Positions 1,527 to 42,590 of a stretch of 46,094 nt of DNA are shown here, piece after piece. The stretch lies in the UHGV virus genome UHGV-0027450; one strand, 5' to 3'. The DNA is from a virus. The notes beneath the pieces were generated by a model. That model worked only from the letters and a program-made list of their open reading frames with translations. It had not been told where the DNA came from and did no database searches. Position 1 is the stretch's first letter; each line of letters begins with the position of its first letter. The position numbers and the translations under genes are program-made.

Positions 1527-1676
1527 GATATCTCCGATAAACCTGATGTAGATTATACTATGCGCTCGGTGTAGATTGGTCAAGTGTGGTGATGCGGATT
1601 TATCAACAACAATAATAAATGTTGACGTGGATATATTGGTGATGTAGATTGAAGTCATACGAAACAAGGAGGATTT
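1527..1676. promoter_or_regulatory. divergent promoter/operator region
   Basis: Plus strand: TTGACG(1622-1627)-17nt-TAGATT(1645-1650), then gaagtcatacgaaac and SD aggagg before the ATG at 1677. Minus strand: TTGACC (rc of 1578-1583)-17nt-TAGTAT (rc of 1555-1560). Three copies of the GRYGTAGATT motif (1540-1550, 1568-1578, 1641-1651) overlap the promoter elements. Confidence 0.55.
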
Positions 1677-1940
1677 ATGGAACGCATCATCACTCGCTAC
1701 ATCAACAAAGAAACTGGCCTTGTTGCATTCAAAAAGCTATGTGTGCGCAACATTGATGGTATGTTTCGCGTAGTGCAGGTATCAAATTACGGTTACGGCG
1801 CTGAAGACTCGGTGACTCCAGTACCCAGCATTAAGGCATACAAGACGCAGCGCGGAGCAGAGAAAGCACTGGAGTCTTACAGGCTGCCGAGATACAAAAT
1901 GACGGTGGTTGAAGGTTTGATGCAAGAAGGTAAAATATAA
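1677..1940 (+). CDS. hypothetical protein (87 aa)
   Basis: Track ORF. Strong SD aggagg 4 nt upstream, a canonical promoter, and a terminator directly downstream. Confidence 0.55.
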   Translation: MERIITRYINKETGLVAFKKLCVRNIDGMFRVVQVSNYGYGAEDSVTPVPSIKAYKTQRGAEKALESYRLPRYKMTVVEGLMQEGKI

Positions 1941-1945
1941 CCACA

Positions 1946-1973
1946 AGCCCTCGAATGAGGGCTTTATTTTTAT
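1946..1973 (+). terminator. intrinsic terminator
   Basis: Hairpin agccctc-gaat-gagggct followed by ttatttttat. It overlaps the 3' end of the convergent terminase gene. Confidence 0.6.
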
Positions 1974-3277
1974 CGCCTGCGCCGGATTAGCATTGCTGCC
2001 ATTGGTCGCACGAGTGGGAACTTATTATAAATGTAATAATCAGCCGCATCGTTCGGATGGTCATTATCGTGAGTTTTGTCTGGCTCACCCTGCTTGTTGT
2101 AAATCTGCTGCTCTCTCGCCTCAGTGTATATTGGACACAGCTTTGTGTTTACCTTGTATCTGCGCTCGCCTTCAGCGTTGCAGAACATCGCGTTAACAGA
2201 GTTGATGCGGTCCCTGACTGGTGGGTTCTTACTGTCAGCCATAACATGAAAGCCAGCATCTCTCAACAAAGCTATATCTGACGTACCAGCGTTCACGGTT
2301 TTGCGACTGCCGCCTGATGCATCGGGATAAACGTAAATTTCACACAGCTTCTCAAACTCGCCATTTGATGTCTCACGCCATAAACGCTGCTTGATTAACC
2401 TAATCATTTCTGGCGTATCGTAAGCACCAAGTATCTCGCCAACTGCGATCGGGTCACCATTCCTCTCGACGTGAATAATTGCAGACATCTTGCCAACGTT
2501 GAAGTCCATACCGACATGGGCTGGTTCGCCTGTCTTGTATTCCTCATCGCTGTGATTAAGATTCCTGTCGAATTGAGGATAAACAGTGCCAGACGTAAGG
2601 TTTACAAACTCACCCTGCAAATAGGCATCAATGAGTTGTGGAGGGTAGCTATCACGCAGTGACTGAACGTAGTCATCAGGCAGGAAAGGGTTACTCATAG
2701 TGCTTGCCTGCACCATTTCATACCCATCCTTTTTGTTCTTTACCCATCTGTCATAAACAAACCGGAATCCTTCAGGGGTTGAGAATATACCAACAGTATT
2801 CATCGGCTTGCCTGAGGTGTCAGTGTATGTCCTCGGTCGCTGACGGTTGCGGGCGATTATTTTTATCCACGCCTCAGATGCGTGCTCTTGCTTAAGCGTA
2901 TCAATTTCGTCAATCTTTGCACGGAACGACTCATAACCAACTATTCGAGCCGGATTATCAAGAGTCCTGAGAACAAAATCCCCCATCTGTCCTGATGAGG
3001 TGTAAATTATGTTCTCTGCCTTGTTGTATTTATATCGCACCCCCCAGTCGATTAATTTCTCCTCCATGCGAGGGGCGAGAATAAGACGCACGAGGTCATA
3101 TGTTGGCTCATATAACGCAACAAGGCTATCAGAACCACCCTCAAGGCTATCCAGAAGAGCTGAGTTGCACATGGTTTCTGACTTGCCAGTGCCAAAGCCA
3201 GCGATGAAGGCCGGAAATTTGCACTTGAGGTTCAGGTATCTTGCCTGTGGCTCAGTTGCTGTTACTCTTATCTGCAC
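1970..3277 (-). CDS. terL: terminase large subunit (GTG start)
   Basis: 435-aa track ORF with Walker A GFGTGKS near the N-terminus and a C-terminal nuclease-like region. GTG start with SD agaggtga. It overlaps the small subunit gene, which is the canonical terS-terL arrangement. Confidence 0.85.
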   Translation of the reverse strand: MQIRVTATEPQARYLNLKCKFPAFIAGFGTGKSETMCNSALLDSLEGGSDSLVALYEPTYDLVRLILAPRMEEKLIDWGVRYKYNKAENIIYTSSGQMGDFVLRTLDNPARIVGYESFRAKIDEIDTLKQEHASEAWIKIIARNRQRPRTYTDTSGKPMNTVGIFSTPEGFRFVYDRWVKNKKDGYEMVQASTMSNPFLPDDYVQSLRDSYPPQLIDAYLQGEFVNLTSGTVYPQFDRNLNHSDEEYKTGEPAHVGMDFNVGKMSAIIHVERNGDPIAVGEILGAYDTPEMIRLIKQRLWRETSNGEFEKLCEIYVYPDASGGSRKTVNAGTSDIALLRDAGFHVMADSKNPPVRDRINSVNAMFCNAEGERRYKVNTKLCPIYTEAREQQIYNKQGEPDKTHDNDHPNDAADYYIYNKFPLVRPMAAMLIRRRR

Positions 3278-3713
3278 TAATCACCTCTATCTGCACCTTA
3301 TGGATTGCTCCATCACCATCTGCACCTTCCGATTCAGGCTTATCTCTCCATAGTTTTGGTTGCCTGTTTTTTAACCAGAAAATCATTGATGTTGGGTCTG
3401 GTGGGTATCTTTTGATTGTTGGTGTGATTACTATTTCACCATTAACCGCTTTGATGTCGTCTTCTGGATGCTCATAACCGGTAGCCCTGCTGAACAATGC
3501 TTGAGCAACTCGCGCGTCAGCAATTTCCTTTCCTCGCCTTAAGGACTCAAGAAACGACGGGTGTTTGTGCTTCCATGCGTTTATTGTTTGCTCGCTCACG
3601 TCAAAGAAAGTAGCAAGCTGTTTATCAGTAGCGCCAAGCAGGCAATAGTTGTACGCCTGCTCGTCGTACTCAGGTTTGTATTCTGTCGGTCGCCCGATTG
3701 GTTTATCTGACAT
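3252..3713 (-). CDS. terS: terminase small subunit
   Basis: 153-aa ORF immediately upstream of and overlapping terL. HTH-like N-terminus (KQLATFFDVSEQTINAWK). SD agaggtga. Confidence 0.7.
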   Translation of the reverse strand: MSDKPIGRPTEYKPEYDEQAYNYCLLGATDKQLATFFDVSEQTINAWKHKHPSFLESLRRGKEIADARVAQALFSRATGYEHPEDDIKAVNGEIVITPTIKRYPPDPTSMIFWLKNRQPKLWRDKPESEGADGDGAIHKVQIEVISADKSNSN

Positions 3714-3742
3714 AATTCACCTCTTGATATTTATGTTTATTC

Positions 3743-3770
3743 TATCACAAAGGCAAAAAAGAACCCGCAC
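3743..3770 (-). terminator. intrinsic terminator separating the early mini-gene operon from the terminase genes
   Basis: On the minus strand: hairpin aacccgcc-ttgt-gcgggtt followed by cttttttgcc. Confidence 0.55.
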
Positions 3771-3824
3771 AAGGCGGGTTAAAGGTTGGGTGATGATATG
3801 AGTGAAGCAATGGTGGTTATGTGC

Positions 3825-3998
3825 TTATTGTACACCATCATTATCACGCTTGCCAGCATAGCACCATGCATTTTCATTTGGCGTCTGCACATGAACGATT
3901 TCAAGAGCATCCGGAAATGTTTTGGCTACCTTAGCTATGAATTCGTCCAGTTCGTGCTGCTTTGCGAGGTGCCAAACTTTCTGTTTAGTGGTTTGCAT
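3825..3998 (-). CDS. hypothetical protein (57 aa)
   Basis: Derived ORF with a TAATG overlap to the upstream gene. Translates MQTTKQKVWHLAKQHELDEFIAKV... Not in the track (<60 aa). Confidence 0.35.
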   Translation of the reverse strand: MQTTKQKVWHLAKQHELDEFIAKVAKTFPDALEIVHVQTPNENAWCYAGKRDNDGVQ

Positions 3999-4153
3999 TA
4001 CAGAATCCTGTTCACTTCGTTGGCGTCAACTATCCTCTGGATTAAACCAATTGTTCCATCTACCAGAATCGGCATTCCAACTTCAACGAAGTTAAGGTTG
4101 TCAACTAAAACAGGTTTAAATCTGCACTTAATATAAACAAGCCACATGGTCAT
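3998..4153 (-). CDS. hypothetical protein (51 aa)
   Basis: ATG 4153 overlaps the TGA of the upstream gene. SD ggagga at 6 nt. Translates MTMWLVYIKCRFKPVLVDNLNFVEVG... Confidence 0.35.
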   Translation of the reverse strand: MTMWLVYIKCRFKPVLVDNLNFVEVGMPILVDGTIGLIQRIVDANEVNRIL

Positions 4154-4353
4154 CCTCCAAACGTAAAATCAAGAGCAATTGCATCATGTCCGCCAAATGA
4201 TTCACACATCTGCATAGAGCAACTTGAATCATCTGTAACGATACTTACCGGGTCTTCTGCCTTTATGCCTACATAACCATTTATTACTGGAGAGAACAGT
4301 ATTAGCAGCACATATGCCGCAAAGGCAATAATGCAGACATAGAATTTATTCAT
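4150..4353 (-). CDS. small secreted/membrane protein (signal-peptide-like N-terminus)
   Basis: Track ORF. ATGA overlap with the upstream gene. SD gagggg. N-terminus MNKFYVCIIAFAAYVLLILFSPV. Confidence 0.5.
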   Translation of the reverse strand: MNKFYVCIIAFAAYVLLILFSPVINGYVGIKAEDPVSIVTDDSSCSMQMCESFGGHDAIALDFTFGG

Positions 4354-4520
4354 GTTTCATAGCCCCTCGTAGAGCGCATGCACTTAATGTCGTGAACACC
4401 AGTATCGGGCACAACCTCAATGTAATTACCTATCTGTACCATCATGTAGTGACACGTCTTCATGCTATCCCAGTAGCGCTCCCACATGAATTCCATTGCG
4501 GCGTTAATATCGTTAAACAT
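4350..4520 (-). CDS. hypothetical protein (56 aa)
   Basis: Internal ATG (MFNDINAAMEF) with SD caggag. It overlaps the stop of the upstream micropeptide. Confidence 0.45.
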   Translation of the reverse strand: MFNDINAAMEFMWERYWDSMKTCHYMMVQIGNYIEVVPDTGVHDIKCMRSTRGYET

Positions 4521-4620
4521 AATGCACAACTCCTGCAACAGCTGCTACAAGTGACAGCACATACACAGCAAGGAAGATTTTAGCGCCAGTTGTGTATCGG
4601 CGTCGTTGGTGTCTGGTCAT
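4513..4620 (-). CDS. 35-aa TM micropeptide
   Basis: ATG 4620 with SD ggagg at 7 nt. Translates MTRHQRRRYTTGAKIFLAVYVLSLVAAVAGVVHYV, a basic N-terminus followed by one TM helix. Confidence 0.3.
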   Translation of the reverse strand: MTRHQRRRYTTGAKIFLAVYVLSLVAAVAGVVHYV

Positions 4621-4683
4621 CTGTATGCCTCCACTAAAGCGTGCGCCACATAGAGCGCACTTATAATTAATATGAACGGGTAG

Positions 4684-4986
4684 TTATTCACCTTTAGCCA
4701 GGCTTTCGAATTGCTGTGCGGTGGTGTCAAACTGAACCAGACTGACAACATCGTCGAACATGACAAATTCTCCTTCAGAATCTTCAGTCATGTCAGCGCC
4801 ACAATCCTGACCGAACGAGTCACAACCATCCATATCAAGCTCGTATCGCTTGAGTTTTGCGATATTTGATAAATTCAGCGCCAGTACAGCAAGGTCATAA
4901 ACCTCATCAGCGGTATACCAGGCACCATGCCCATGCATTTCAATACGGGATATGATTTCTTCTACACGTTGTTTTGTGATCGTCAC
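4684..4986 (-). CDS. hypothetical acidic protein (100 aa, GTG start)
   Basis: Track ORF. GTG start with SD ggaggtga at 6 nt. It overlaps the stop of the upstream gene. Confidence 0.5.
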   Translation of the reverse strand: MTITKQRVEEIISRIEMHGHGAWYTADEVYDLAVLALNLSNIAKLKRYELDMDGCDSFGQDCGADMTEDSEGEFVMFDDVVSLVQFDTTAQQFESLAKGE

Positions 4987-5459
4987 TTTTGCTCACCTCC
5001 CTGTTCTTCCAGAAAAATACGCATAGCCTCAAGCATCTCTTCGGTGTCATACGGTGATAACTTGTCACGCAGGATGTGTTCAATGCTGTTAATGAACTTG
5101 CGGATTGCTTTGCGTTCAATTTCAGCCAGAAAAGCATCAGTGGCTGGGGTTTCAGGGAGTTCGAATAGCTCAACCAGATTCGTGACCTTTCCAGTCTCAA
5201 GCATCCATTCAGGCGGTTTTTCTTTTGATAACTCCCACCGCCAATCCTGGAAGCCCTCACATGTTTCACACCCCTCATATCGATAAGAATAAGCAACAGG
5301 TGTCCGCGCACTCATCCCGGCATTCTCCGCAGCCAGCGCCACGCATTTAGCTTCTAGTGCCGCGTAGTCTTCGTAGTCAACATAATCACCGCATGGCGAT
5401 TCGTAAGACTCAACGCCACCAAGTGAAACTCTCATGTCATAACGCTTAACTTCACTCAT
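4983..5459 (-). CDS. hypothetical protein (158 aa, Cys-rich N-terminal half)
   Basis: Track ORF with ATGA overlap to the upstream gene. Confidence 0.55.
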   Translation of the reverse strand: MSEVKRYDMRVSLGGVESYESPCGDYVDYEDYAALEAKCVALAAENAGMSARTPVAYSYRYEGCETCEGFQDWRWELSKEKPPEWMLETGKVTNLVELFELPETPATDAFLAEIERKAIRKFINSIEHILRDKLSPYDTEEMLEAMRIFLEEQGGEQK

Positions 5460-5689
5460 ACCCTAACCCCCATAATTTCTTCGTAATAGCCATCTTCTTC
5501 AAACTCAATCTTTGCGATTTTGAGCGCATCCTCATCGGTAATGTCAATCGCTTTGAATTTGCACTTTGCCAGCATGATGCATCCTGACAGGATTAGCCAC
5601 TTATTCCACCAGTGCACTCGCTTGATTGTCCTGCTCGCATACACTTTGTTCTGTACAAACCAGAATTCGTATGTTTTGACCTTTGCCAT
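5456..5689 (-). CDS. hypothetical protein (77 aa)
   Basis: ATG 5689 lies 2 nt after the stop of the Lar-like gene. The track ORF starts at the GTG at 5698. Confidence 0.45.
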   Translation of the reverse strand: MAKVKTYEFWFVQNKVYASRTIKRVHWWNKWLILSGCIMLAKCKFKAIDITDEDALKIAKIEFEEDGYYEEIMGVRV

Positions 5690-5690
5690 A

Positions 5691-5879
5691 TCAATCACTA
5701 TTAACCCTGCGATTCCAGTCAGCGATTGTCTGCACTGCAGACTCCCTGAAGTTTGTCATTCTCGCCCCACACGAGCATCGAATCAGGAAGTATGGTTTCT
5801 CATGCTCAGATGAACGCCATGGTTTAACTTTTGGTTCTCCACCGCAAAACGGGCAACTCTTGATAATCAACTCACTCAT
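5691..5879 (-). CDS. Lar-family restriction alleviation protein
   Basis: MSELIIKSCPFCGGEPKV...YFLIRCSCGARM...AVQTIADWNRRV matches the Lar (Rac prophage) signature CPFCG...C.CG...A...WNrR. ATG 5879 (M14 of the track ORF) with SD ggtga. Confidence 0.6.
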   Translation of the reverse strand: MSELIIKSCPFCGGEPKVKPWRSSEHEKPYFLIRCSCGARMTNFRESAVQTIADWNRRVNSD

Positions 5880-5914
5880 ATAATCACCATTCAAATAAGA
5901 GCGCTGAATCGAGG

Positions 5915-6097
5915 TCAAAACACGATAATCAGCTCATCCATTACTCTTCTCTTGCCTTCACCATTAAACACGCGCACAACGCGATTTACGCGGATAGATT
6001 CCATCGCATGGCGAGCCTGCTTGCCCATGAAGTTTTGCGCGCCAACGTGACCGAGTTCCTGTTCCAGCTTCTCGCGACGATAGATAGTCTTTGCCAT
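5915..6097 (-). CDS. hypothetical protein (60 aa)
   Basis: Track ORF. SD ggaga. Confidence 0.5.
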   Translation of the reverse strand: MAKTIYRREKLEQELGHVGAQNFMGKQARHAMESIRVNRVVRVFNGEGKRRVMDELIIVF

Positions 6098-6100
6098 TTG

Positions 6101-6259
6101 TTATTTCTCCACGTGCGCCTGATACATTGCTTGCCAGATGAACACAACGGCATCGCTTAGTTCATCATCAGTCAGGTAGTCGATATTGAAATTTTCAATA
6201 ACTTCACGAATACCTGCCTCAATCATCTCTTCTGTTGGTTGGATTGGTTTGTTGCTCAT
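6101..6259 (-). CDS. hypothetical acidic protein (52 aa)
   Basis: Internal ATG (MSNKPIQPTEEMIEAG) with SD aagggg. The track ORF starts further upstream at a non-ATG codon. Confidence 0.45.
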   Translation of the reverse strand: MSNKPIQPTEEMIEAGIREVIENFNIDYLTDDELSDAVVFIWQAMYQAHVEK

Positions 6260-6263
6260 TTTG

Positions 6264-6359
6264 TTACCCCTTATACCCTGATTTAGAAACTGCCACTGCA
6301 ATAATGATGAATGTCACGATAACCAGACTTGCGATAAGTTCGAATGTTGCGCCTGTCAT
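6264..6359 (-). CDS. 31-aa TM micropeptide
   Basis: ATGA overlap with the upstream gene. Translates MTGATFELIASLVIVTFIIIAVAVSKSGYKG. Its stop lies 5 nt before the next ATG. Confidence 0.3.
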   Translation of the reverse strand: MTGATFELIASLVIVTFIIIAVAVSKSGYKG

Positions 6360-6541
6360 TTCTTTGAAGCCTTGTATTCATCTTCAGTCATCGCATAAGC
6401 CTCGCAAATCATGTTTGCTGCATCAATGATTGCATTTGAGCGCATATCAGCAGGAAGGCTTGGAACCTGTTGTGATAATGCCATGCATATATCGCTGAAT
6501 AACTTCATCTGGTCGATGCTGTATGTGATTTCTTCTTTCAT
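6356..6541 (-). CDS. hypothetical protein (61 aa)
   Basis: Track ORF. SD gagggtga. Confidence 0.5.
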   Translation of the reverse strand: MKEEITYSIDQMKLFSDICMALSQQVPSLPADMRSNAIIDAANMICEAYAMTEDEYKASKK

Positions 6542-6555
6542 CCCTTCACCCTCGT

Positions 6556-6771
6556 TTAGTTTTTCTGTTGCTGCGCTAACCCTAACTGCTCATTGGCTAC
6601 TTCGGCCGCCGATAAAAGAATTCCTGCAAGTTCGGTTGCCTGCTCTGGTGTCATAAACATGAAGTCATTCTCAGTCTCCAGCTCTACACGGTTAAACTTG
6701 GCTGCAATCATGATGTCATCACCACTTTTGTTTTTCATTGATGCGCTGAACTCAGTTTTTTTATTACTCAT
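6556..6771 (-). CDS. hypothetical protein (71 aa); first gene of the early mini-gene operon
   Basis: Track ORF. SD ggtgaagag. It lies directly downstream of the canonical promoter at 6802-6830. Confidence 0.55.
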   Translation of the reverse strand: MSNKKTEFSASMKNKSGDDIMIAAKFNRVELETENDFMFMTPEQATELAGILLSAAEVANEQLGLAQQQKN

Positions 6772-6801
6772 CTCTTCACCATAGTTTGTTTCGATGAGTT
6801 C

Positions 6802-6830
6802 AATCTACATCAATTGTTATTCTACGTCAA
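6802..6830 (-). promoter_or_regulatory. sigma70-type promoter, TTGACG-17-TAGATT, for the early mini-gene operon
   Basis: Read on the minus strand: TTGACG-tagaataacaattgatg-TAGATT-gaactcatcgaaac. The leader is almost identical to the promoters at 1622-1665 and 26300-26341. Confidence 0.55.
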
Positions 6831-6908
6831 TGCGATTTTTCAGGTGTCGCATTAGTGGGTTCTGGTGAAACATGACCAATTGCGCGATTATCAATCACAC
6901 CACAAAAA

Positions 6909-7264
6909 CCCGGTAAATCCCGGTTTTTCAAATAAAGTACCGGTAATCAACATCTTACAAAAACAATCCTGACTTAAAAACTACTGTATTTACCTACAGG
7001 TGGTAAAAATCAATCCAGTAATGACGCGGGCTGCGGAGGAGTTACCGGTTTTACCCGGTAAATCCTATATAAGTAAGTAAGTTACTTTCTTATATTAATA
7101 TATTGATTTTATTATAGTTCTTTAAAAATTAGACCAATTAATATACTACTACTCTCAATGATGAAAATACTCCTTAGAGTTACGGTAAAACCGGTAAAAT
7201 CATATAAATCAATTAGTTATGCAAAAAACTGACCAATAAATATACGGTAAATTAGGTAAAATCG
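6909..7264 (+). repeat. iteron array (at least 8 direct copies of mCGGTAAA(A)TC) with an AT-rich segment; putative replication origin
   Basis: Copies sit at 6909-6923, 6939-6950, 6999-7016, 7043-7065 (two copies), 7181-7201 (two copies) and 7243-7264 (two copies). The 7066-7160 stretch is more than 75 percent AT. There is no ORF on either strand between 6830 and 7410. Confidence 0.5.
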
Positions 7265-7428
7265 AGTGCAAATTGAACGATAGGCACCATCCACATATAT
7301 CAGATATGAGATAGTGGTCTGACCAGTTGTTAAGTGTGGTAGCTATTGTTGCTGGTTAGGCCTGTTTTGTGTTGCGTTAATTTTATTTTTTATCTATAGT
7401 TTCTAACAGAATGCAGATGGAGGTGACT

Positions 7429-7659
7429 ATGAGAAAAAAAATGTACCGTGATGGTTCAAAGATGGAATTCGTGTATCGCGTTGCAAAACATATGGATATT
7501 GGTCAGGTTAATTCGATTGCTTATGAGGATATTGCAGATAAAGGGATGTCTGTTGAAAGATTTCGCGCGTGTCTCGGAAGGATTGGTGAGGATTTTGGGA
7601 TGAAATTCAGAACGTGCTCATATTTCGATGAGGTTTTGCACATTAAGCGAGTTGAGTGA
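7429..7659 (+). CDS. hypothetical protein (76 aa)
   Basis: ATG 7429 with SD ggaggtga. First gene of the plus-strand replication operon. Confidence 0.5.
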   Translation: MRKKMYRDGSKMEFVYRVAKHMDIGQVNSIAYEDIADKGMSVERFRACLGRIGEDFGMKFRTCSYFDEVLHIKRVE

Positions 7660-7666
7660 GGTGAGT

Positions 7667-7957
7667 ATGAGTTGCGCTCCGATATTCCCTGTTACGACAT
7701 CTCTTGCTCACGACGTGATAAATAATCTTACCGCTCCTGATGGGTGTCAGTTTTACTTTGAGAACGGGTATTCAACTTCAATTTTGATTGGTGGAAGAGA
7801 TGGGTGCTACGCATACGACATAGAGCGAGGTTTTCAGATGACAATGGCGTCACTTCAGAAGGCGCTAAAAATTGAGGCTGACAGGGTGGGTGCTGTGTTA
7901 ACGGTGAAACATGGTGTTATCCATGGTAAATTCTTGCGCGTATGGAGGGTGTATTGA
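7667..7957 (+). CDS. hypothetical protein (96 aa)
   Basis: ATG 7667 with SD gaggtgag. ATGA-coupled to the next gene. Confidence 0.5.
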   Translation: MSCAPIFPVTTSLAHDVINNLTAPDGCQFYFENGYSTSILIGGRDGCYAYDIERGFQMTMASLQKALKIEADRVGAVLTVKHGVIHGKFLRVWRVY

Positions 7958-9534
7958 TGAGTTCGATTGATTTTGAGTCTCTGGCTATGGGCATAAAGCG
8001 GGAGGCTCCCGGGGCACTTGGTGAGTTTATGGATGAGATCGCAAGGGGGTTTGAGCGCCGTGAGGGCGGGGGAAGGTATCGTTTAACTGGCGCTTTGGGT
8101 CTTGCTCAGGCGATGGCTGGACGATACTTGATTGGTCCAACAGGTAGTATCTGCAATACTGGCATATTTCTGGTGGCTCGCTCTGGTGCAGGCAAGGGTG
8201 CACCGGTGAGTTTTGTCAGGGCATATGCCAATGCGCTGGGAATAGGGTCCAGAGTTTGCGCATCCAAATCAACCTCGACGAAACAGATGCAGTTGGACCT
8301 GATTGCTGGAGGCGGGTCTTTGCTCTACGTTGTGAACGATGACAAGCAACATCTTGAAGACTGGAACAACCCGCGCAATGCATATCTTGGCGGCACTATG
8401 GCGTGGTATAGAGGCCTCACTGATGGCGGCGTGTGGGTCCCTAACAGACCAATAATCAAGGAGTTGCTTGAAAACCTTACGTGGGAACAAAACCCAAAAC
8501 GCATCATGGCGGCAGCAAGCGCTGAGGGATGGATAGTGCCACTTACTGGTGGCGATGATGGGAAAGGAGTCATAGATTATAAGCGCCTTGCGATGATGGA
8601 CCACAGCGTTGGGCGAGCGCTAAAGTCGGCAATGAATGAGTACGAAATTGCAACAAAAGACGGTGGAATTGAAAATGCAAAATTTGTCCCGCTGATTACT
8701 GTCACACCAGAGCAGGGAATAGATGCTGCGCGTTCATGGCAGAAAGATGGCGGTATGGGGCGCGTGCTGTTCCAGCTTGGGCATCTTGCTGGTGAGGAAA
8801 TGCCAGCGATGAAGGATGTGGAAGTGAGTGGTACGCTTTCAAGAAAAATAATCAATGAGTGGAAAGGTAGGGTTCTTACCGCGAAAACTAACGTCGTATG
8901 GGCTGATGATAATGCGAAAAAACTGCACAGATATCTGTCTATGAAACTGGAAAGTGAGCTTGGTGATTGCGATGGTGTTGTTGGTGATGTTATACCTCGT
9001 ATGGGTCTAATGATTGTCGATCTTGCAACTCTGGCGGCGTATACCGATCTGTCAAGTCGTCGTGGAATGACACCATCAGTGACGACGGAGCATATTGAGT
9101 GGGGTTATCTCACGGTTCTTGAACACCTCGCAGGGCTGAAAAGATTCCTTGAGGGTGAACAGGCATTTGATGGGCTTGAGAATACTGAGTGGTCAAATAT
9201 TGTTGAAAAAATAAAGCGAATTTGTGAATCACAGGCATTCATTAAAACGCCTTATTTGTCTGTTATAAAGAACAAACTGTGCCGTGACAGAGTTGAAAAG
9301 ATAATCAATTCTGCTGACTCGAATAACATCACATTAACGCCGGATAAATTTGTTTATGAAGTTCTTCTTGCTATTGAGGAGAACAAACATTCACCACTAA
9401 TGCTGGACAGGGATAATCCAAGAGCAATTAAGATGTGTAGTGATGGATCATGGGATGGTCTGCGGATGAACTCAACGGTTAGAAATTATCTTTCTGCTGC
9501 CGTTAAGCGCATGAGATTTATGAGGGGGTTGTAA
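7957..9534 (+). CDS. P-loop NTPase, putative replication initiator/helicase-like protein
   Basis: 525 aa. Walker A ARSGAGKGA and a Walker-B-like LLYVVNDD. SD ggagggtg. It lies next to the origin-like iteron region and a primase gene. Confidence 0.65.
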   Translation: MSSIDFESLAMGIKREAPGALGEFMDEIARGFERREGGGRYRLTGALGLAQAMAGRYLIGPTGSICNTGIFLVARSGAGKGAPVSFVRAYANALGIGSRVCASKSTSTKQMQLDLIAGGGSLLYVVNDDKQHLEDWNNPRNAYLGGTMAWYRGLTDGGVWVPNRPIIKELLENLTWEQNPKRIMAAASAEGWIVPLTGGDDGKGVIDYKRLAMMDHSVGRALKSAMNEYEIATKDGGIENAKFVPLITVTPEQGIDAARSWQKDGGMGRVLFQLGHLAGEEMPAMKDVEVSGTLSRKIINEWKGRVLTAKTNVVWADDNAKKLHRYLSMKLESELGDCDGVVGDVIPRMGLMIVDLATLAAYTDLSSRRGMTPSVTTEHIEWGYLTVLEHLAGLKRFLEGEQAFDGLENTEWSNIVEKIKRICESQAFIKTPYLSVIKNKLCRDRVEKIINSADSNNITLTPDKFVYEVLLAIEENKHSPLMLDRDNPRAIKMCSDGSWDGLRMNSTVRNYLSAAVKRMRFMRGL

Positions 9535-9950: not shown

Positions 9951-9952
9951 CA

Positions 9953-9983
9953 AAAACCCTCCTATTGGAGGGTTTCTTTTATC
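9953..9983. terminator. bidirectional intrinsic terminator
   Basis: Hairpin aaaccctcc-tat-tggagggttt flanked by an A-run and a T-run. It lies between the convergent ASCH and primase genes. Confidence 0.6.
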
Positions 9984-10935: not shown

Positions 10936-10987
10936 TTGACCCTTGATTGTTGGTGTAGATTGAGTATAAGCTAACTGACGTAGAAAC
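10936..10987 (+). promoter_or_regulatory. helicase promoter region with embedded GTAGATT and TGACGTAGAAAC motifs
   Basis: TTGATT(10944-10949)-16-TATAAG(10965-10970). GGTGTAGATTG (10952-10962) sits inside the spacer and TGACGTAGAAAC (10976-10987) just downstream. Confidence 0.45.
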
Positions 10988-31546: not shown

Positions 31547-31549
31547 ACA

Positions 31550-33531: not shown

Positions 33532-33562
33532 TAAAAAACCCGCATAATGCGGGTTTTGTTTA
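33532..33562. terminator. bidirectional intrinsic terminator
   Basis: ataaaaaacccgcat-aa-tgcgggttttgttt. Confidence 0.7.
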
Positions 33563-36770: not shown

Positions 36771-36893
36771 TAGTTTGTGGTCGAATTATAACACAGGGAG
36801 ATATAGCACCATGAGGCGGTAGCCAGTGCAAACAATGGCGAATTGGTGAGTGCGTATAGCGTGAGAAAGTAAGTGATAGGGATTATGTTCATG
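36771..36893 (-). CDS. 40-aa hydrophobic micropeptide
   Basis: SD aggaggtg at 6 nt. Translates MNIIPITYFLTLYALTNSPLFALATASWCYISLCYNSTTN. Confidence 0.3.
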
Positions 36894-38155: not shown

Positions 38156-38644
38156 TCATACTCTTGTTTCTTGCGCTTTGCTTTCCCCATGCTGGCCTCT
38201 TACATTGCGAAGAAGTGAATTAAACAGGTTGCTCACGTTTACTTCCTGCTCCTGCCATGAGTAACGCCATAGCTTCTTGTGGTGGTCATAGCTTCGCGTA
38301 ACATCGCCGTTATGAAACATGATTCGGATGCGGCTTTTTACGATTCGGTAATCCAAGCCAGTGGCTGAGCTAATTTCTTTCACCTCTGAGTCATTATTAT
38401 CAATCAGGTGGCACTTAATCGCATCATCAATATCAGCAGCATCATCAGAGATGAAATACATGTACTGCCACTTACCACCACGAATCACGGACTTCTCTCG
38501 GCGAATGAAGCCAAGAGCAAGCATCTCATGAAGTCGATGCGTTGTGGTGCTTGAATGTTTACCACCGCAATGCTTTTCAATATATGCACGCGTTGCTCCA
38601 GGATGCATCATAATCACGCGCATGATTTGTGATTTATAGTCCAT
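38156..38644 (-). CDS. winged-HTH DNA-binding protein (162 aa)
   Basis: Start taken at M70 of the track ORF (SD agagga). MDYKSQIMRVIMMHPGATRAYIEKHC...RLHEMLALGFIRREK is wHTH-like. Confidence 0.5.
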   Translation of the reverse strand: MDYKSQIMRVIMMHPGATRAYIEKHCGGKHSSTTTHRLHEMLALGFIRREKSVIRGGKWQYMYFISDDAADIDDAIKCHLIDNNDSEVKEISSATGLDYRIVKSRIRIMFHNGDVTRSYDHHKKLWRYSWQEQEVNVSNLFNSLLRNVRGQHGESKAQETRV

Positions 38645-39328: not shown

Positions 39329-39356
39329 TTCCACATCACCTTTTCCGTTGTGGTAC

Positions 39357-39395
39357 AATCTACGTCAATAAGTATTGACTAAGTGACGTAGAAAC
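39357..39395. promoter_or_regulatory. divergent promoter/operator region
   Basis: The minus strand reads TTGACGTAGATTG (rc of 39357-39369). The plus strand carries GTGACGTAGAAAC (39383-39395) and an upstream tgGTACAAT element (39352-39359). Confidence 0.45.
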
Positions 39396-39427
39396 GTCAA
39401 GATGTTTTTCGAGAAGGAGTAGTAAAT

Positions 39428-39652
39428 ATGCCAAGACCACGACGCGAGCCGATGGACATTATCACCAGCATTGTGGAGAAGCGTCAGCCGCTGACACTCC
39501 GTGATGTTCGCTACTTTGCCCGTTGCTATGTGGCGCTGGCTGATATGCCAAAGGATGAGATGTATGATTTGATTCGGGACAATTTTGAAGTTGATGAACA
39601 CAACCGCGTCACAATGCCGCGACGCAAGATGACTAAGTGGAGAGAGAAATGA
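39428..39652 (+). CDS. hypothetical protein (74 aa)
   Basis: SD gaaggag. Confidence 0.5.
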   Translation: MPRPRREPMDIITSIVEKRQPLTLRDVRYFARCYVALADMPKDEMYDLIRDNFEVDEHNRVTMPRRKMTKWREK

Positions 39653-40170
39653 TTAAAGGTAAACTGGTTTATTCTGGAACTGGCAGCCCGGCGCGCATAT
39701 ACAAATCGCAAAGCATTGAGCGGTCATATGATGATATTCAATTTGAATCAATGACACTGAAAAAAGTTGATGCTGGTAGATTCGCGAGAATAGAGGGGAT
39801 TGATAAGTATGGGTATAAATTTTTCGCCGAATACCCTTCGTGGTCTTTTGTGTTTGAAAATGACGAGCAAGACCTCAACGATTGCATTGGCGCACCGGAA
39901 GCTGACACAACAGAGCAACTCATCACCGAGCGCGGTAGCCGATATGGTAAATTCAAAGATGGCGCTGAAATCATGCAGGAACTAAAATTCGTCATGCGCG
40001 AAGTTGATGGATGGCATAATCTTACGCCAAGCCAACGCGAGGCGCTCGACATGATTCAGCACAAGATTGGGCGCATCCTGAATGGCGACCCGACATATGA
40101 CGATAGCTGGAAAGATATTGCTGGCTATGCGACGTTAATTGTTAATGAACTGAACGGAGAGATTAAATAA
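39649..40170 (+). CDS. hypothetical protein (173 aa)
   Basis: ATGA-coupled to the upstream gene. The C-terminal half is all-alpha and could be an NTP-pyrophosphohydrolase-like fold. That is only a guess. Confidence 0.5.
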   Translation: MIKGKLVYSGTGSPARIYKSQSIERSYDDIQFESMTLKKVDAGRFARIEGIDKYGYKFFAEYPSWSFVFENDEQDLNDCIGAPEADTTEQLITERGSRYGKFKDGAEIMQELKFVMREVDGWHNLTPSQREALDMIQHKIGRILNGDPTYDDSWKDIAGYATLIVNELNGEIK

Positions 40171-40433
40171 TGTCATTCTGCGACATCACAATCGCGCAAC
40201 GAAACGCGAACTACACCAATATTGCTGACACATCAGCACAACTGGTATCACTAAACAGCGACGGCAGCGCAGTGCTAAAAATCGGCACTGAGACGGCGCA
40301 ATTCATCGTTCAGAATCTGTCACAGGCAAACGCAAAGCAGGTATTAATCAGCACTGGTAGCGTTTTGTTTTTAGCTGGTAATTACAATGCACCGAATCTT
40401 GAGTGCTCATTAGTCCGCATTGTGGAGGAGTAA
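40170..40433 (+). CDS. hypothetical protein (87 aa)
   Basis: TAATG-coupled to the upstream gene. Confidence 0.5.
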   Translation: MSFCDITIAQRNANYTNIADTSAQLVSLNSDGSAVLKIGTETAQFIVQNLSQANAKQVLISTGSVLFLAGNYNAPNLECSLVRIVEE

Positions 40434-40434
40434 A

Positions 40435-40773
40435 ATGAAAATCGAAAAAATATCACCAGCCAGCATGTTGATTAGCGATGTTGGTAACGATGTGGTATTT
40501 AAGCGTAATGGCCGACATTATTTGGTGGCTCCTGACATTACGATTGAATCTGGAGGAGTGAAATTCCGCATCCCGGCAAAAGCTATAGACCTTGAGATGG
40601 TTAGTTGCACTGGTTTATCTGGAGGCCTGGCGTTTACTGCTGTTGATGGCTACAACGTTCGAGTTGAGCATAGCGCTGATGGCAATGTAGCTAAATTCAC
40701 ATCGAAAATAGAGAGGGAGTTAAAGCAAATAAAGGAGTCCGCTGATGAACCAACAGCATTGCCAGCAGAGTGA
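40435..40773 (+). CDS. hypothetical protein (112 aa)
   Basis: ATG 40435 with SD ggaggag. Confidence 0.5.
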   Translation: MKIEKISPASMLISDVGNDVVFKRNGRHYLVAPDITIESGGVKFRIPAKAIDLEMVSCTGLSGGLAFTAVDGYNVRVEHSADGNVAKFTSKIERELKQIKESADEPTALPAE

Positions 40774-40900
40774 TCCACCAAAACCGTCAGCATGGTGTGA
40801 GCAAATGGAGCGCAATGCGAAGGATGGCGATGAGGCGTATGCTTATTTCCAGCTGAAGCAGATGTGGAAGCGGCGAGAAAATCCTGAGCAAACCAATTAA
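40745..40900 (+). CDS. hypothetical protein (51 aa)
   Basis: Translates MNQQHCQQSDPPKPSAWCEQMERNAKDGDEAYAYFQLKQMWKRRENPEQTN. It ends at the terminator. Not in the track. Confidence 0.35.
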   Translation: MNQQHCQQSDPPKPSAWCEQMERNAKDGDEAYAYFQLKQMWKRRENPEQTN

Positions 40901-40904: not shown

Positions 40905-40931
40905 AAGCCCCATGATGGGGCTTTTTTATTG
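40905..40931 (+). terminator. intrinsic terminator
   Basis: aagcccc-atgat-ggggcttttttatt. Confidence 0.7.
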
Positions 40932-40940: not shown

Positions 40941-41084
40941 TTGACTCACGAAAAGGATGTTGCTACCATTGCCTTGTTTAAAAGTAACGACAACGTGAAC
41001 TTTGGTACATGTTTTCGGGCAGCAGTCGGCGATTCGCACTCGCTGATTCATAAGAAAACCCCTCAATTGAGGGCTTTTTTATTG
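40941..41084 (+). ncRNA. candidate about 105-nt small RNA between two terminators
   Basis: TTGACT(40941-40946)-17-TACCAT(40964-40969), followed about 100 nt later by the hairpin cccctcaattgagggg and a T6 run (41055-41084). The only ORF here (40929..41144) reads through that terminator. Confidence 0.3.
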
Positions 41085-41557: not shown

Positions 41558-41777
41558 TGCGCAGCCTCCGGTTCTCCTTCCTCATACCGTGCATCTTGCC
41601 GAGGATGCCAACCAGCATGATGGAGTAGCTCACACCTTTCACCACTATTGGCGGTAGTGCCGCTTTCAGGTCGTCCGGCATCATTACCCATACATGCATC
41701 ATTGCATCAGGCCATAGCTGCAATAGCGAGCAGAATGAAATCCACAGGCCGAGCAGCCAGTTGCTTAGCTTTTTCAT
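41538..41777 (-). CDS. putative class II holin (2 TM helices)
   Basis: 79 aa. Hydrophobic segments WLLGLWISFCSLLQLW and IVVKGVSYSIMLVGILG. ATGA-coupled to the endolysin stop. Confidence 0.5.
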   Translation of the reverse strand: MKKLSNWLLGLWISFCSLLQLWPDAMMHVWVMMPDDLKAALPPIVVKGVSYSIMLVGILGKMHGMRKENRRLRNDVDSR

Positions 41778-42238
41778 GCGACCGTCCCGCCTGCGGCCTT
41801 ATACACCTGAATCAGCTTATCCAGTTTCTGCTCATGCTGACCATACCCAGCGCCCGGCAGTGAAGCCCATCGTGAGCGGCATTTATGAATAGCATCAGCA
41901 ATCCTCCCAGCCTCAATATCTGCCATTGCTTTGCATTCACGGATTAGCTGCATTGCAATAGCATCCTGCGATGCAGGAGAGAAGTCCGGCAGGCGCAACT
42001 GCTTTTTGTACGCGTCATAAAACTTAGCCAGTACCTGATAACGCCCGGCGGCAGTGGATTTGATGCCCAGCTTAGGCAGGCTAATCAGCTTGCGCGGGTG
42101 ATCGGAGTAGTCGGTAAACAGCGAGCCGCCAACAATCACATCATAACCATGATTATTGGTTTTCTGCCGCCCGTTATCAGTGCCCTCGCTGTACGCCAGC
42201 ATATCCAAAAACGCTTTCATGTTTTTGCTAATAGCCAT
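41774..42238 (-). CDS. endolysin, lambda R-like lytic transglycosylase
   Basis: MKAFLDMLAYSEGTDNGRQKTNNHGYDVIVGGSLFTDYSDHPRKL... is nearly collinear with lambda R (KAFLDMLAWSEGTDNGRQKTRNHGYDVIVGGELFTDYSDHPRKL). ATG 42238 with SD aagagg. Confidence 0.85.
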   Translation of the reverse strand: MAISKNMKAFLDMLAYSEGTDNGRQKTNNHGYDVIVGGSLFTDYSDHPRKLISLPKLGIKSTAAGRYQVLAKFYDAYKKQLRLPDFSPASQDAIAMQLIRECKAMADIEAGRIADAIHKCRSRWASLPGAGYGQHEQKLDKLIQVYKAAGGTVA

Positions 42239-42506
42239 ACCAGTAAACCTCTTTTTCAGCTTTGCGTTTTGCTTTATCGCCAGTCTTCTCTCCCCACACG
42301 ATGAAATGCGCAACAGCACATGAGAAGCAGCGGAAATTGTGTTTCTTCAGAAGCGTTGATTTTCGGAAAGCGTCAATGCCAATGTCGGTTGCAAGACTTG
42401 TCAGCGCATCGAACTGATTCTGCGCTGTCTCCGTGGTGATGTAAGGCGATATATCCACGGCATCGGTGATTCCAAGTGTCTCCATGCCGTGTTGCGATAG
42501 TTTCAT
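42228..42506 (-). CDS. hypothetical protein (92 aa) upstream of the endolysin gene
   Basis: Track ORF with an 11-nt overlap with the endolysin gene. No TM helix. Confidence 0.45.
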   Translation of the reverse strand: MKLSQHGMETLGITDAVDISPYITTETAQNQFDALTSLATDIGIDAFRKSTLLKKHNFRCFSCAVAHFIVWGEKTGDKAKRKAEKEVYWYGY

Positions 42507-42550
42507 TCTGCCTCCTGTTCAAGTTATTATTAATTCTATCACAATGGCTA

Positions 42551-42590
42551 TTGACGTAGATTGAGCGGTGGTGCATAGTATCTACATCAA
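42551..42590. promoter_or_regulatory. divergent promoter/operator region
   Basis: TTGACGTAGATTGAG (42551-42565), then gcaTAGTATctacatca (42573-42589). The latter mirrors the minus promoter at 1544-1563. Confidence 0.5.

Follow-up and report, generated by a model that had tools for sequence, protein, structure and literature searches.

The question raised by this locus is why a short word recurs at predicted promoters across the window (the whole stretch analysed, 46,094 nucleotides of UHGV virus genome UHGV-0027450), and whether it is read by a dedicated regulator, as a preliminary description had proposed. The window is a Skatevirus/Deseoctovirus-like siphophage, reported as a virulent small siphovirus (PMC11990801), and no integrase is found in the annotations of its relatives. 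The hosts given for Skatevirus-like phage are E. coli and Salmonella. Judged from the sequence, the motif most likely marks a phage-wide early-gene regulon under a candidate phage DNA-binding protein; the overall interpretation given in the preliminary description is partly supported.

The motif and its enrichment

In an unbiased k-mer scan (k = 8–11), TGACGTAGA, TGATGTAGA and words extending them rank first. The TGACGTAGA-type 9-mer and the TTGACR-N17-TAGATT promoter family, previously treated as separate, are therefore one motif, TGAYGTAGA followed by TT or AAC. TGAYGTAGA shows the strongest over-representation genome-wide among 8–11-mers, with 14 exact and about 5 degenerate copies in the window. 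The full word, tTGAYGTAGATT, is asymmetric, 11–12 bp long and present in about 19 copies, and the weight matrix (86 non-redundant contexts) has no dyad partner. TGACGTAGA occurs seven times, as had been counted, at 6821(−), 10976, 31304, 31335, 39359(−), 39384 and 42552, against 0.14 expected (the earlier value of 0.35 was conservative); 0/100 shuffles reach seven, confirming the enrichment over shuffled sequence. All four of the TTGACR-N17-TAGATT promoters claimed earlier were recovered in place (0.02 expected). Two individual readings had to be corrected: the reverse copy at 6820, given as ending in ATTG, is TTGACGTAGAATA, and the GTGAC reading at 10975 is in fact CTGACGTAGAAAC. The proposed 25-nt leader is present but inexact, with a match at 1641, a version shorter by 1 nt at 26319, and one mismatch plus the same 1-nt deletion at 6788(−).

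Intergenic sequence makes up 9.4% of the genome but holds 13 of the 14 exact TGAYGTAGA copies, and the intergenic segments that were simulated contain 12 against a mean of 0.076. By our own gene map, all copies are intergenic apart from the one at 13348, which extends into the final codons of the preceding ORF. Copies are paired in direct (10, 17, 21, 24 and 30/31), convergent (29) and divergent (25) arrangements, 17 bp being the most frequent spacing.

Promoter architecture and operon classes

Sites are found at the −35, spacer, −10 and +1 of predicted sigma-70 promoters, in both orientations (Table 1). Promoter calls are consensus matches, and genome-wide the promoter scanner returned no more matches than in shuffles. 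On these calls, every −35/−10-type promoter predicted here carries the putative operator within its core, between −35 and about +12. The sites at 1544, 1567 and 1590 keep a 23-bp register, and the P_A-L architecture is the same in a divergent contig. The copy in the spacer of the helicase promoter is as originally described; so is the tandem at 13348/13358, except that its second copy does supply a −10. Operon 7429–9950 has no recognisable motif-bearing promoter.

Table 1. Predicted sites, promoters and candidate regulator genes in the window
Feature	Coordinates	Strand	Comment
Site TGATGTAGATT	1544–1554	+	overlaps 3′ end of −10 and +1 of leftward P_A-L
Degenerate site CGGTGTAGATT	1567–1577	+	P_A-L spacer
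Degenerate site TGATGCGGATT	1590–1600	+	immediately upstream of P_A-L −35; sequence read directly
P_A-L, TTGACC-N17-TAGTAT	1555–1583	−	TATAAT 2 nt downstream of TAGTAT; predicted to drive 68-aa gene and small-gene operon 1523–244
P_A-R, TTGACG-N17-TAGATT	1622–1650	+	87-aa gene 1677–1940; sites TGACGTGGATA 1623–1633 (−35), TGATGTAGATT 1640–1650 (−10)
P_B, TTGACG-N17-TAGATT	6802–6830	−	small-gene operon 6771–3825; sites 6819–6829 (−35), 6802–6812 (−10), 17 bp apart
P_C-R, TTGATT-16-TATAAG; P_C-L, TTGATG-18-TATACT	10943–10992		overlapping divergent; helicase operon (R), primase (L); sites 10951–10961, 10976–10986, each in one promoter's spacer and at the other's +1
P_D, TTGCCT-N17-TAGATT	13340–13368	+	internal, upstream of exonuclease VIII-like gene 13399; tandem sites 13348–13358 (spacer), 13358–13368 (−10)
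P_E, TTGACA-N17-TAGATT	26300–26328	+	site 26318–26328 (−10); predicted to drive accessory ('moron') operon 26364–27336
P_F, TTGACA-N17-TAGATT	28135–28163	+	site TGGTGTAGATT 28153–28163 (−10); points to 630-nt stretch without called gene and tRNA-Met 28791–28867
P_G, TTGACG-N17-TATAGT	31303–31345	+	ParB-like operon; sites 31304–31314 (−35/upstream spacer), 31335–31345 (+1)
Region H, bidirectional	39351–39404		sites 39357–39367(−), 39384–39394(+)
P_H-L, TTGACG-18-AATACT	39400–39371		predicted
P_H-R, TTGACT-17-CAAGAT	39376–39404		predicted
Region H rightward extended −10, TGGTACAAT	39351–39359		3′ end overlaps reverse site
P_I, TTGACG-N17-CATAGT	42551–42589	+	site 42552–42562 (−35); inverted site 42579–42589 directly after −10
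Extended −10 promoter TGATATAAT	26280–26288	−	tail/tape-measure operon
Late extended −10 family	232–240, 3739–3747, 17596–17604, 20178–20186, 21432–21440, 26280–26288, 28120–28128, 31286–31294, 36785–36793, 42533–42541	−
74-aa basic protein	39428–39652	+	winged-helix-like fold; candidate regulator
ParB-like protein	31550–32359	+	Spo0J-like N-terminal domain and HTH_ParB; candidate regulator
68-aa protein	1317–1523	−	three-helix, HTH-like; candidate regulator or co-factor
MarR-like wHTH protein	38156–38644	−	disfavoured

The 12 predicted motif-bearing promoters (12/12) serve non-structural operons, with replication, recombination, ParB, anti-restriction and small accessory genes downstream, and for this reason the coordinated early regulon suggested previously is a fair reading. 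For the structural and lysis operons, the promoters are instead of the extended −10 type (TGnTAnAAT), without the operator; they lie ahead of the terminase, portal, capsid, tail and lysis genes and are frequently back-to-back with an early promoter.

Conservation of the sites

Many copies double as a TTGACG or TAGATT hexamer, so part of the motif conservation is ordinary promoter constraint. The word might be nothing other than a composite of −35 (TTGAC) and −10 (TAGATT), with no dedicated factor, kept by selection for strong host-polymerase promoters and spread or homogenised by recombination between promoter cassettes, comparable to the PeSL modules of T4. Both hexamers are contained in the word, 9 of the 19 copies act as a −35 or −10 element, and the commonest spacing of 17 bp makes the first copy a −35 and the second a −10. 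Recombination at promoter modules is shown by the first gene behind the conserved P_G promoter and UTR, which is swapped among relatives. However, site positions outside the hexamers are conserved (0.82, n = 157) to the level of hexamer-only positions (0.83), compared with 0.64 for other intergenic positions and 0.58 for promoter spacers outside sites, the least conserved class (Mann–Whitney p = 4e-13), and site positions exceed other positions in 9/9 regions. Copies in the spacer, at +1 or in reverse cannot be hexamers, yet are equally conserved; the GTAGAAAC form lacks the final T essential to a −10; and the bases between the half-elements and beside TTGAC are invariant, though unread by sigma-70. 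We regard a purely composite origin as improbable. The equal conservation of bases outside the hexamers supports a cis-acting site superimposed on sigma-70-type promoters, as had been proposed, rather than a mere promoter hexamer. Across relatives, 31303–31346 has an invariant TTGACGTAGATTG, 8 free nucleotides, a conserved TATAG and a conserved TGAYGTAGAAAC. Because the entire 5′ UTR of region G is invariant, its +1 site adds no independent evidence.

The phages C1, Bas80 and KFS-SE2 and the Klebsiella phages KP591P1 and VLCpiS13a have 11–14 motif copies each. Nearly all of 75 IMG/VR loci have 2–3 copies per 10 kb (one 5.9-kb fragment has none), and 38 kb of a divergent contig with 44–70% protein identity contain 5 exact copies. 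Counts are 0–2 in T1, a Vibrio myovirus, ECOO78 and Mulock, all of which share modules with the window. At orthologous places the orientation and the 3′ tail (ATT versus AAAC) change while TGAYGTAGA is retained, which also agrees with a superimposed site: the site after the P_I −10 is inverted in the window and direct in KP591P1, and at the same place the window has GTAGAAAC where C1 has GTAGATT.

Phages infecting E. coli, Salmonella, Shigella or Klebsiella share an identical core, and so do the lineages at 44–70% protein identity. A host protein conserved in Enterobacteriaceae (a nucleoid protein or transcription factor), whose binding the phage exploits, would easily explain this, because the reader of the site would not evolve with the phage. 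The module-sharing coliphages T1, ECOO78 and Mulock are nevertheless without the word, and a literature search did not find it in a phage or bacterial regulatory context. We know of no match to the E. coli factor consensuses compared (DnaA, FNR, NarL, MetJ, EvgA, CRP and others). A host reader seems to us very unlikely.

Proposed function

We infer that the motif is bound by a protein, that the binder is encoded by the phage and that its effect is repressive. We give roughly even odds to tTGAYGTAGATT(S)A being an asymmetric operator, about 12 bp long, through which such a binder represses early promoters. The free register, the use of either orientation and the lack of dyad symmetry fit the operator of a monomer-type binder, most simply an early-promoter repressor. 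At the start of infection, host sigma-70 RNA polymerase would use the motif promoters unaided, to which their TTGACR, 17-bp spacer and TAGATT or TATAGT are suited. A sequence-specific phage protein from one such operon, a monomer or flexibly linked, would bind each copy independently. As the copies overlap the −35, spacer, −10 or +1, the bound protein would occlude or trap polymerase, so that the early/middle regulon would limit itself by feedback and be shut off. Transcription of the structural and lysis operons would start from the operator-free extended −10 class, which has no −35, and early-promoter silencing may also ease competition with the late promoter, since the two are often back-to-back.

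Repression is the proposed sign of the regulation, but class II activators and T4 MotA also act at −35-overlapping sites. A phage factor at the same sites could act positively or as a switch, either remodelling or recruiting sigma-70 polymerase by MotA/AsiA-like sigma appropriation or, like phi29 p4, repressing the early promoter and activating the back-to-back late one. For regions G and I, the centre of the site falls at about −30 relative to the predicted start of the leftward extended −10 promoter, the position at which T4 MotA boxes sit; the distance varies, however, being −45 to −50 in E and F, and 6 of 10 late promoters have no nearby site. Some motif promoters have a weak −10 (CAAGAT in region H), but all retain a good −35 and a 17-bp spacer, unlike MotA-dependent ones, and −10 and +1 are not activator positions. 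The 74-aa candidate has a weak fold match, among many winged helices, to the MotA N-terminal domain, and the 68-aa protein, being small, helical and acidic, resembles anti-sigma factors such as AsiA; against this, none of the 18 proteins scanned has a Pfam match to MotA or AsiA. Positive or switch-like action is in our view unlikely.

Candidate regulators

As candidate binders, the 74-aa, ParB-like and 68-aa proteins rank roughly level, with the MarR-like wHTH protein below them. The preliminary description had named the 68-aa and wHTH proteins, and missed the other two, which we rate better or equal. The 74-aa protein is present in every motif-bearing lineage tested. The 68-aa protein has an HTH-like fold, but its third helix is acidic; its gene always adjoins the largest site cluster. 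The MarR-like protein is an unlikely binder, as its recognition helix varies between clades with an identical motif, and it was not found in the 38 kb covered of the most divergent genome that bears the motif.

The ParB-like protein has an invariant recognition helix, and its gene follows two perfect sites. The word is missing from phages whose ParB-like protein is 47% identical. In one viable isolate the N-terminal and HTH parts of ParB have been lost, a recent event, and the sites are retained. The same protein raises the reading that the sites function in DNA metabolism and not in transcription, where a ParB-like protein, primosome or recombinase would load or recognise the DNA. Short boxes scattered in either orientation can be recognised by ParB-family proteins, as with the P1 ParB boxes. 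Such functions do not require every site to be inside a core promoter, however, the isolate is viable without these parts, and the obvious origin-like region (6831–7428) has a different repeat, CCGGTAAA. This we hold to be the least probable of the explanations considered.

Comparison with known systems

The closest analogues of the proposed operator appear to be the operators/stoperators of mycobacteriophage L5 and the C1 operators of P1. In cluster A mycobacteriophages (L5, Bxb1) these sites are 13–14 bp long, lack dyad symmetry, are bound non-cooperatively and number 20–30 per genome, mostly oriented with transcription; some are true operators in promoters such as Pleft (PMC6550527, PMC1934351). 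The window likewise has about 19 asymmetric 11–12-bp sites, dispersed over the genome and without fixed pairing. The L5 operator contains a −35-like TTGAC, as does the word here. L5, however, is temperate, its repressor confers immunity and most of its sites are outside promoters and block elongation, whereas the present phage is reported as virulent (PMC11990801), its relatives have no annotated integrase and its sites are all inside predicted core promoters.

In RK2, KorB/ParB resembles the present case in that about a dozen sites lie at promoters across the replicon; here too the putative regulon includes a gene for a ParB-family protein, preceded by copies of the site. The RK2 sites are 13–16-bp palindromes, whereas the word here is asymmetric and persists in the isolate that recently lost the ParB HTH. 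The C1 operator of P1 is an asymmetric 17-bp sequence found at more than 10 dispersed places in either orientation, overlapping the promoters of many operons and bound by monomers; P1 is temperate, and its operator is longer, with an unrelated sequence. The C1 labels on the records of some relatives are automatic names and carry no evidential weight. T4, likewise a virulent phage, also has in its middle promoters (MotA box and AsiA) a short asymmetric phage-specific word, which is associated with an entire temporal class of promoters used by host polymerase; four of the promoters here have the word overlapping the −35 region, centred near −29. The MotA box replaces the −35 at a fixed position, whereas here the −35 is intact and the word occurs also at −10, spacer and +1 in both orientations. 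Thermus phage P23-45 transcribes its early genes from −10/−35 promoters and its middle and late genes from extended −10 promoters without −35 recognition. Its switch consists of the polymerase-binding proteins gp39 and gp76, not of a DNA operator, but the same two promoter classes can be recognised by sequence here.

A single motif in nine regions

An unbiased k-mer scan of the window ranks TGACGTAGA, TGATGTAGA and their extensions first at k=8–11. The preliminary description had treated a promoter family and a recurring 9-mer as separate; because both lead this ranking, we regard them as a single motif that consists of TGAYGTAGA and a tail, either TT(G) or AAC. The copy counts given there all hold on recount. 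The motif is genuine, and as a cis element it is both far from random and under evolutionary constraint. It occurs in 14 exact copies and about five with one or two mismatches, all in nine regions (A–I), and 13 of the 14 exact copies fall in the 9.4% of the window that is intergenic in our own gene map (binomial 6e-13). Its enrichment was borne out by simulation, the simulated intergenic segments holding 12 copies against a simulated mean of 0.076. Pooling the relatives gives 86 non-redundant contexts, whose weight matrix reads tTGAYGTAGATT(S)A; its information is confined to positions −1 to +12 with no symmetric partner, and the sole partial palindrome among the copies is TGACGTAGAAACGTCA in region H.

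Two simpler assignments were rejected. The word does not suit a plain or extended −10 element: its TG is separated from TAGATT by 3 nt instead of 1 nt, a −35 at 16–18 bp is missing from many copies, and the GTAGAAAC form lacks the final T. A palindrome bound by a dimer was rejected because there is no dyad and the spacings vary. The word is not known to match convincingly the sites of E. coli factors (DnaA, FNR, NarL, MetJ, EvgA and others). The only match to Rfam families is tRNA-Met, and no relevant paper containing the word was found in the literature searched.

Coordinates of the motif copies, promoter elements, hairpins and candidate genes in the window
Feature	Position	Strand	Remark
Motif-bearing regions	A 1544-1650; B 6802-6830; C 10943-10992; D 13340-13368; E 26300-26328; F 28135-28163; G 31303-31345; H 39351-39404; I 42551-42589		
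Word supplying −35	1623, 6821, 31304, 42552		T/TGACG...
Word supplying −10	1640, 6804, 13358, 26318, 28153		.../TAGATT
Word in spacer	1567, 10951, 13348, 39384		
Word at or just after +1	1544, 10976, 31335, 39359, 42581	− (39359, 42581)	
Late element TGATAGAAT	3739-3747, 20178-20186, 42533-42541	−	
Late element TGCTAAAAT	21432-21440, 31286-31294	−	
Late element TGATATAAT	26280-26288, 28120-28128	−	
Late element TGATACAAT	17596-17604	−	
Late element TGTTATAAT	36785-36793	−	
Late element TGCTATAAT	232-240	−	
Terminator-like hairpins	9952-9977, 22612-22629, 33535-33557, 40905-40923, 41060-41073	both	41060-41073 sits between two − strand genes
68-aa protein	1317-1523	−	candidate binder
ParB-like protein	31550-32359	+	candidate binder
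57-aa protein	32600-32773		
MarR-like wHTH protein	38156-38644	−	candidate binder
74-aa protein	39428-39652	+	candidate binder

Predicted early promoters built around the motif

Consensus scans and direct reading give 12 predicted sigma-70 promoters in the nine regions, each with a TTGACA-like hexamer, a 16–18 bp spacer, TAnnnT and a gene downstream on the same strand; a start codon with a Shine–Dalgarno sequence lies 20–65 nt downstream of each. Every site overlaps a predicted core promoter, at positions that span −35 to +12. At 1622-1650 and 6802-6830, a pair of copies spaced by 17 bp, the arrangement met most often in the pooled data, makes up the whole promoter; other pairs are direct (10, 21, 24 and 30/31), convergent (29) or divergent (25). 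The predicted leftward promoters of regions A, C and H (P_A-L, P_C-L and P_H-L) follow one plan: a reverse copy adjoins the −35, and the −10/+1 junction carries another, which is forward in P_H-L and reverse in the other two. The divergent contig retains the P_A-L plan, beside a homologue of the 68-aa protein. At orthologous places the orientation may flip (42581(−) in the window is a direct copy in KP591P1) and the tail may change (GTAGAAAC at 39384 is GTAGATT in C1). Such freedom of register, spacing, orientation and tail is unlike an element contacted by polymerase or a dimer site of fixed spacing. It would fit independent binding by a monomer-type protein anywhere in the polymerase footprint, the pattern of positions being that of repressor operators.

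Blocks of genes switch strand along the window in the map made here. Structural, lysis and terminase genes lie on the − strand, and replication, recombination, ParB-like and many small genes mostly on the + strand. Taking functions from the annotations of relatives, motif promoters serve the 87-aa gene at 1677, the small-gene operons 1523-244 and 6771-3825, the primase, the helicase/VRR-NUC/exonuclease VIII/annealing protein/SSB operon together with its internal promoter, the accessory ('moron') operon 26364-27336, a predicted tRNA-Met transcript, the ParB-like/RusA operon, operon 39328-36948 (with Lar-like and MarR-like genes), and operons 39428-40900 and 42608-43861. Region D is the only site region inside an operon, and it also forms a predicted promoter. 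None of the structural and lysis operons has a motif promoter ahead of it.

Three promoters of type I have TCAT(A)CGAAAC in common at about +5 to +15 (1655-1664, 6784-6797(−) and 26333-26342). The variants ATCGAAAC and TCATCGAAAG are retained in the Klebsiella and divergent clades, and the motif in its +1 form, GTAGAAAC, likewise ends in GAAAC. A conserved element of the 5' leader is one possible reading. Downstream of the predicted promoter at 28135-28163 (+), no gene can be called with confidence over about 630 nt; tRNA-Met (28791-28867, +) and then a terminator (28873-28893) come next. Conservation in Klebsiella relatives is about 77% over the first 275 nt. The opposite strand has a weakly conserved ORF (28145-28525), and relatives carry one to three tRNAs at the locus (28135-28895). 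Given the gene-poor stretch, the tRNA with its terminator and the opposing ORF, the transcript may be processed to the tRNA, or may instead be a non-coding or antisense RNA. In the ParB-like operon (31346-31550 and orthologous loci, for example L023, L022, L073 and L020), the promoter and 5' UTR are invariant to the start codon. Relatives differ in the first gene: at least five alternatives, unrelated to one another, occur there, and one of them carries an anti-restriction annotation. The start of this operon marks a hot spot of cassette exchange anchored on a conserved promoter.

Predicted late promoters and the probable role of the site

Directly upstream of each structural, lysis and terminase operon, the − strand has an extended −10 element (TGnTAnAAT) without a −35. 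Ten copies have TGn abutting TAnAAT and an operon downstream. The pattern TGNTANAAT occurs 16 times in the window (8 expected), and ten of the 16 stand at late-operon starts inside the 9.4% intergenic mask (binomial 2.5e-7). One of these needs a caveat: around 20178 the gene finder called nothing, yet the stretch looks coding. Conceptual translation of that stretch reads like an NlpC/P60-type tail protein. The strand bias of TGNTANAAT tracks the structural strand in five relatives, and the late elements are conserved in the orthologue alignment. Two-way terminator-like hairpins, scored on both strands, stand at most strand-switch junctions with converging operons and help to bound transcription units that alternate between early and late.

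In regions E, F, G and I, early and late promoters stand back-to-back, 6–11 bp apart. An activating or switching role of the site, like that of MotA or phi29 p4, is possible, as the site centre in G and I is located about 30 bp upstream of the predicted late start. The distance from site to late start varies, however, and a nearby site is missing from six of the ten late promoters. The word is best read as a phage-wide operator of early promoters, and systems of this kind are known. When infection starts, a phage that has no polymerase of its own depends on promoters that the host can use. With their consensus-like −35 elements and 17-bp spacers, the motif promoters should be usable by host sigma-70 polymerase unaided, and would be read by it early in infection. 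The constrained word inside the polymerase footprint would then act as operator, through which a phage product would limit or shut off the motif operons; the late class has no operator. We consider improbable a more elaborate reading, in which the 12-bp word (a −35 half plus a −10 half) is both the building block of early promoters and the target of a small phage protein that flips E, F, G and I from the rightward early to the leftward late operon, with the acidic 68-aa protein as an anti-sigma-like partner that might disable −35 recognition. If true, a virulent siphophage would carry bidirectional temporal switches arrayed over its whole genome.

Conservation across relatives

The window, 46,094 bp, is a complete or near-complete small siphophage genome. 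Its closest relatives are mosaic and about 90% identical: the E. coli phages C1 (genus Deseoctovirus), S192, swi2 and Bas77–81, the Shigella phage Sf11, and the Salmonella phages KFS-SE2 (Skatevirus) and seszw. Exact copies of the motif number 12 in C1, 14 in Bas80, and 11 each in KFS-SE2 and the Klebsiella phages KP591P1 and VLCpiS13a. Among 75 IMG/VR loci around the ParB-like gene, nearly all have two to three per 10 kb, and one 5.9-kb fragment has none. The divergent contig (44–70% protein identity) has five exact copies in 38 kb, with degenerate copies and the same promoter architectures. A Vibrio myovirus that shares the replication module has one copy, ECOO78 has one, Mulock two and T1 none. 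Searching for related loci with the 525-aa helicase returned a single locus, and with the 68-aa family close relatives only.

The nine regions were aligned with all unique orthologues (11–68 per region). Mean conservation is 0.94 where site and hexamer coincide (n=51), 0.82 at site positions outside predicted hexamers (n=157) and 0.83 at hexamer positions outside sites (n=122), compared with 0.65 for Shine–Dalgarno regions (n=233), 0.64 for other intergenic positions (n=320) and 0.58 for promoter spacers outside sites (n=75). Site positions are more conserved than other positions in nine of nine regions; the test of site-only against other positions (Mann–Whitney, p=4e-13) we regard as indicative only, since positions are not independent. 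The clearest footprint is 31303-31346, where TTGACGTAGATTG is invariant and is followed by 8 freely varying nucleotides, conserved TATAG, two to three variable nucleotides and conserved TGAYGTAGAAAC.

T1 has a repeat of its own, a ~20-mer TTTTAACAAAAAGTGCTATT, with 16 copies of GTGCTATT (for example 1449(−), 2268(−) and 38952(−)). About half of the copies, including the cluster 1449-8361, are opposite in strand to the neighbouring genes. This is a repeated element specific to the T1 lineage.

Candidate binding proteins

The small non-structural proteins present in all motif-bearing lineages, the divergent contig included, are the 68-aa, DUF7334, ParB-like, 57-aa and 74-aa proteins and those at 38876 and 40170. 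DUF7540 is widely conserved, and in the divergent lineage is found only in the sister contig (L077/L167), not the assembled one. The MarR-like wHTH protein, put forward earlier with the 68-aa protein as a regulator, is disfavoured: its Klebsiella homologue is 34–36% identical and has a different recognition helix (SSTTTHRLHEM versus RASVTGYLIEL between clades), while the motif is identical. It was not found at the expected place in the divergent contig.

The ParB-like protein has an N-terminal ParB domain and a helix-turn-helix (HTH_ParB E=2.7e-10, KorB domain E=3e-4), and aligns to Spo0J residues 42–199, with GGQHRY replacing GERRY. Its helix-turn-helix segment GWTNEEIAKKVGRSVSDVQMHLSL is identical or differs by one residue across all motif-bearing clades. 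The recognition helix RSVSDVQMHLSL is invariant in those clades and different in the 47%-identical homologues of ECOO78 and Mulock. ParB sites are normally palindromic. The word is asymmetric, unlike the palindromic 13–16-bp parS and OB sites of ParB and KorB, and so this is not a parS/OB system. The viable isolate VLCpiS13a (L168, 7618-7800) has lost the N-terminal and helix-turn-helix parts and retains its 11 sites; the C-terminal ~50 residues remain, fused to a new start. The deletion must be very recent, because its flank is 100% identical to vB_KpS_GP-1, which carries the full gene, and it shows dispensability only.

The 68-aa family is found only within this phage group. The gene is always found beside the largest cluster of sites, and its own predicted promoter is overlapped by two sites. 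The AlphaFold model is a three-helix bundle (pLDDT 82), and a fold search gave weak PDB matches (E>0.3), nearly all helix-turn-helix (NarL, CENP-B, ArdK, resolvase). As the helix in the 'recognition' position is acidic, with invariant DEDFLLRVLDD, a protein-binding role, speculatively anti-sigma-like, would suit it better. The 74-aa protein is basic; its N-terminal arm (MPRPRRE) and a segment RQPLxLRDVR are invariant, and its gene is the first downstream of the site-rich bidirectional region H. It is modelled as a small winged-helix-like fold (pLDDT 83), with weak matches (E>0.3) to MarR, forkhead, STIV F93 and the MotA N-terminal domain (E about 1). For both small proteins, these model-based matches would support a fold class only, not a function. 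PDB sequence searches with the 68-aa and MarR-like proteins gave no matches, and none of 18 small proteins scanned matched MotA or AsiA in Pfam.

Comparison with other regulatory systems

Among known systems, the nearest parallel is the repressor of Cluster A mycobacteriophages; a second close parallel is provided by the C1 operators of phage P1. Cluster A phages have 20–30 sites per genome, some of which are operators inside promoters (PMC6550527). As with the asymmetric multi-copy operators of L5 gp71 and P1 C1, more than ten dispersed copies occur in the window, the motif is kept among relatives and the site has no dyad symmetry. Unlike the temperate, immunity-conferring L5 and P1 systems, this phage is virulent, every site lies inside a predicted core promoter and the cognate repressor is represented by candidates only. 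Most L5 stoperators, in contrast, are sites away from promoters, between the genes of a single operon, where they block elongation. Nor is this a MotA-box system as in T4, where the box is fixed, centred at −30 and replaces the −35, because here the position is unfixed and the −35 elements are intact.

Skatevirus/Deseoctovirus-like siphophages are common on E. coli, Salmonella, Shigella and Klebsiella and are used in biocontrol; Bas77–81 can be obtained from the BASEL collection. To our knowledge, temporal gene control is essentially unstudied in them, and no description of transcription, promoter classes or the motif in this group was found in the literature searched. The BASEL paper, which classes the whole cluster as Skatevirus and relatives and describes small siphoviruses isolated as lytic phages, makes no mention of promoters (PMC11990801). 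Annotations of relatives list no integrase or immunity repressor. Our analysis offers a testable map of 12 predicted early promoters with one operator, about ten late extended −10 promoters and four candidate proteins. The map aids annotation because it marks operon boundaries and hot spots of accessory-gene exchange. If confirmed, the system would add a virulent phage to the few regulators with many dispersed asymmetric operators (L5, P1), and would provide a compact orthogonal operator-and-regulator pair for engineering.

Other repeats in the genome

The 7-mer GCCAGTG/CACTGGC, which is not the Chi sequence, occurs 34 times in the window (8.4 expected), 25:9 between the strands and mostly in coding sequence (for example 1256, 14873, 24579 and 34314). 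Upstream of the helicase/primase operon, a 600-bp AT-rich, gene-free region (6831-7428) holds at least five CGGTAAA repeats (three of them CCGGTAAA), three ACCGGT palindromes, inverted repeats of 14–17 nt and three 22-mers containing GACCAAT. It looks like a replication origin with iterons of its own, different from the TGAYGTAGA word.
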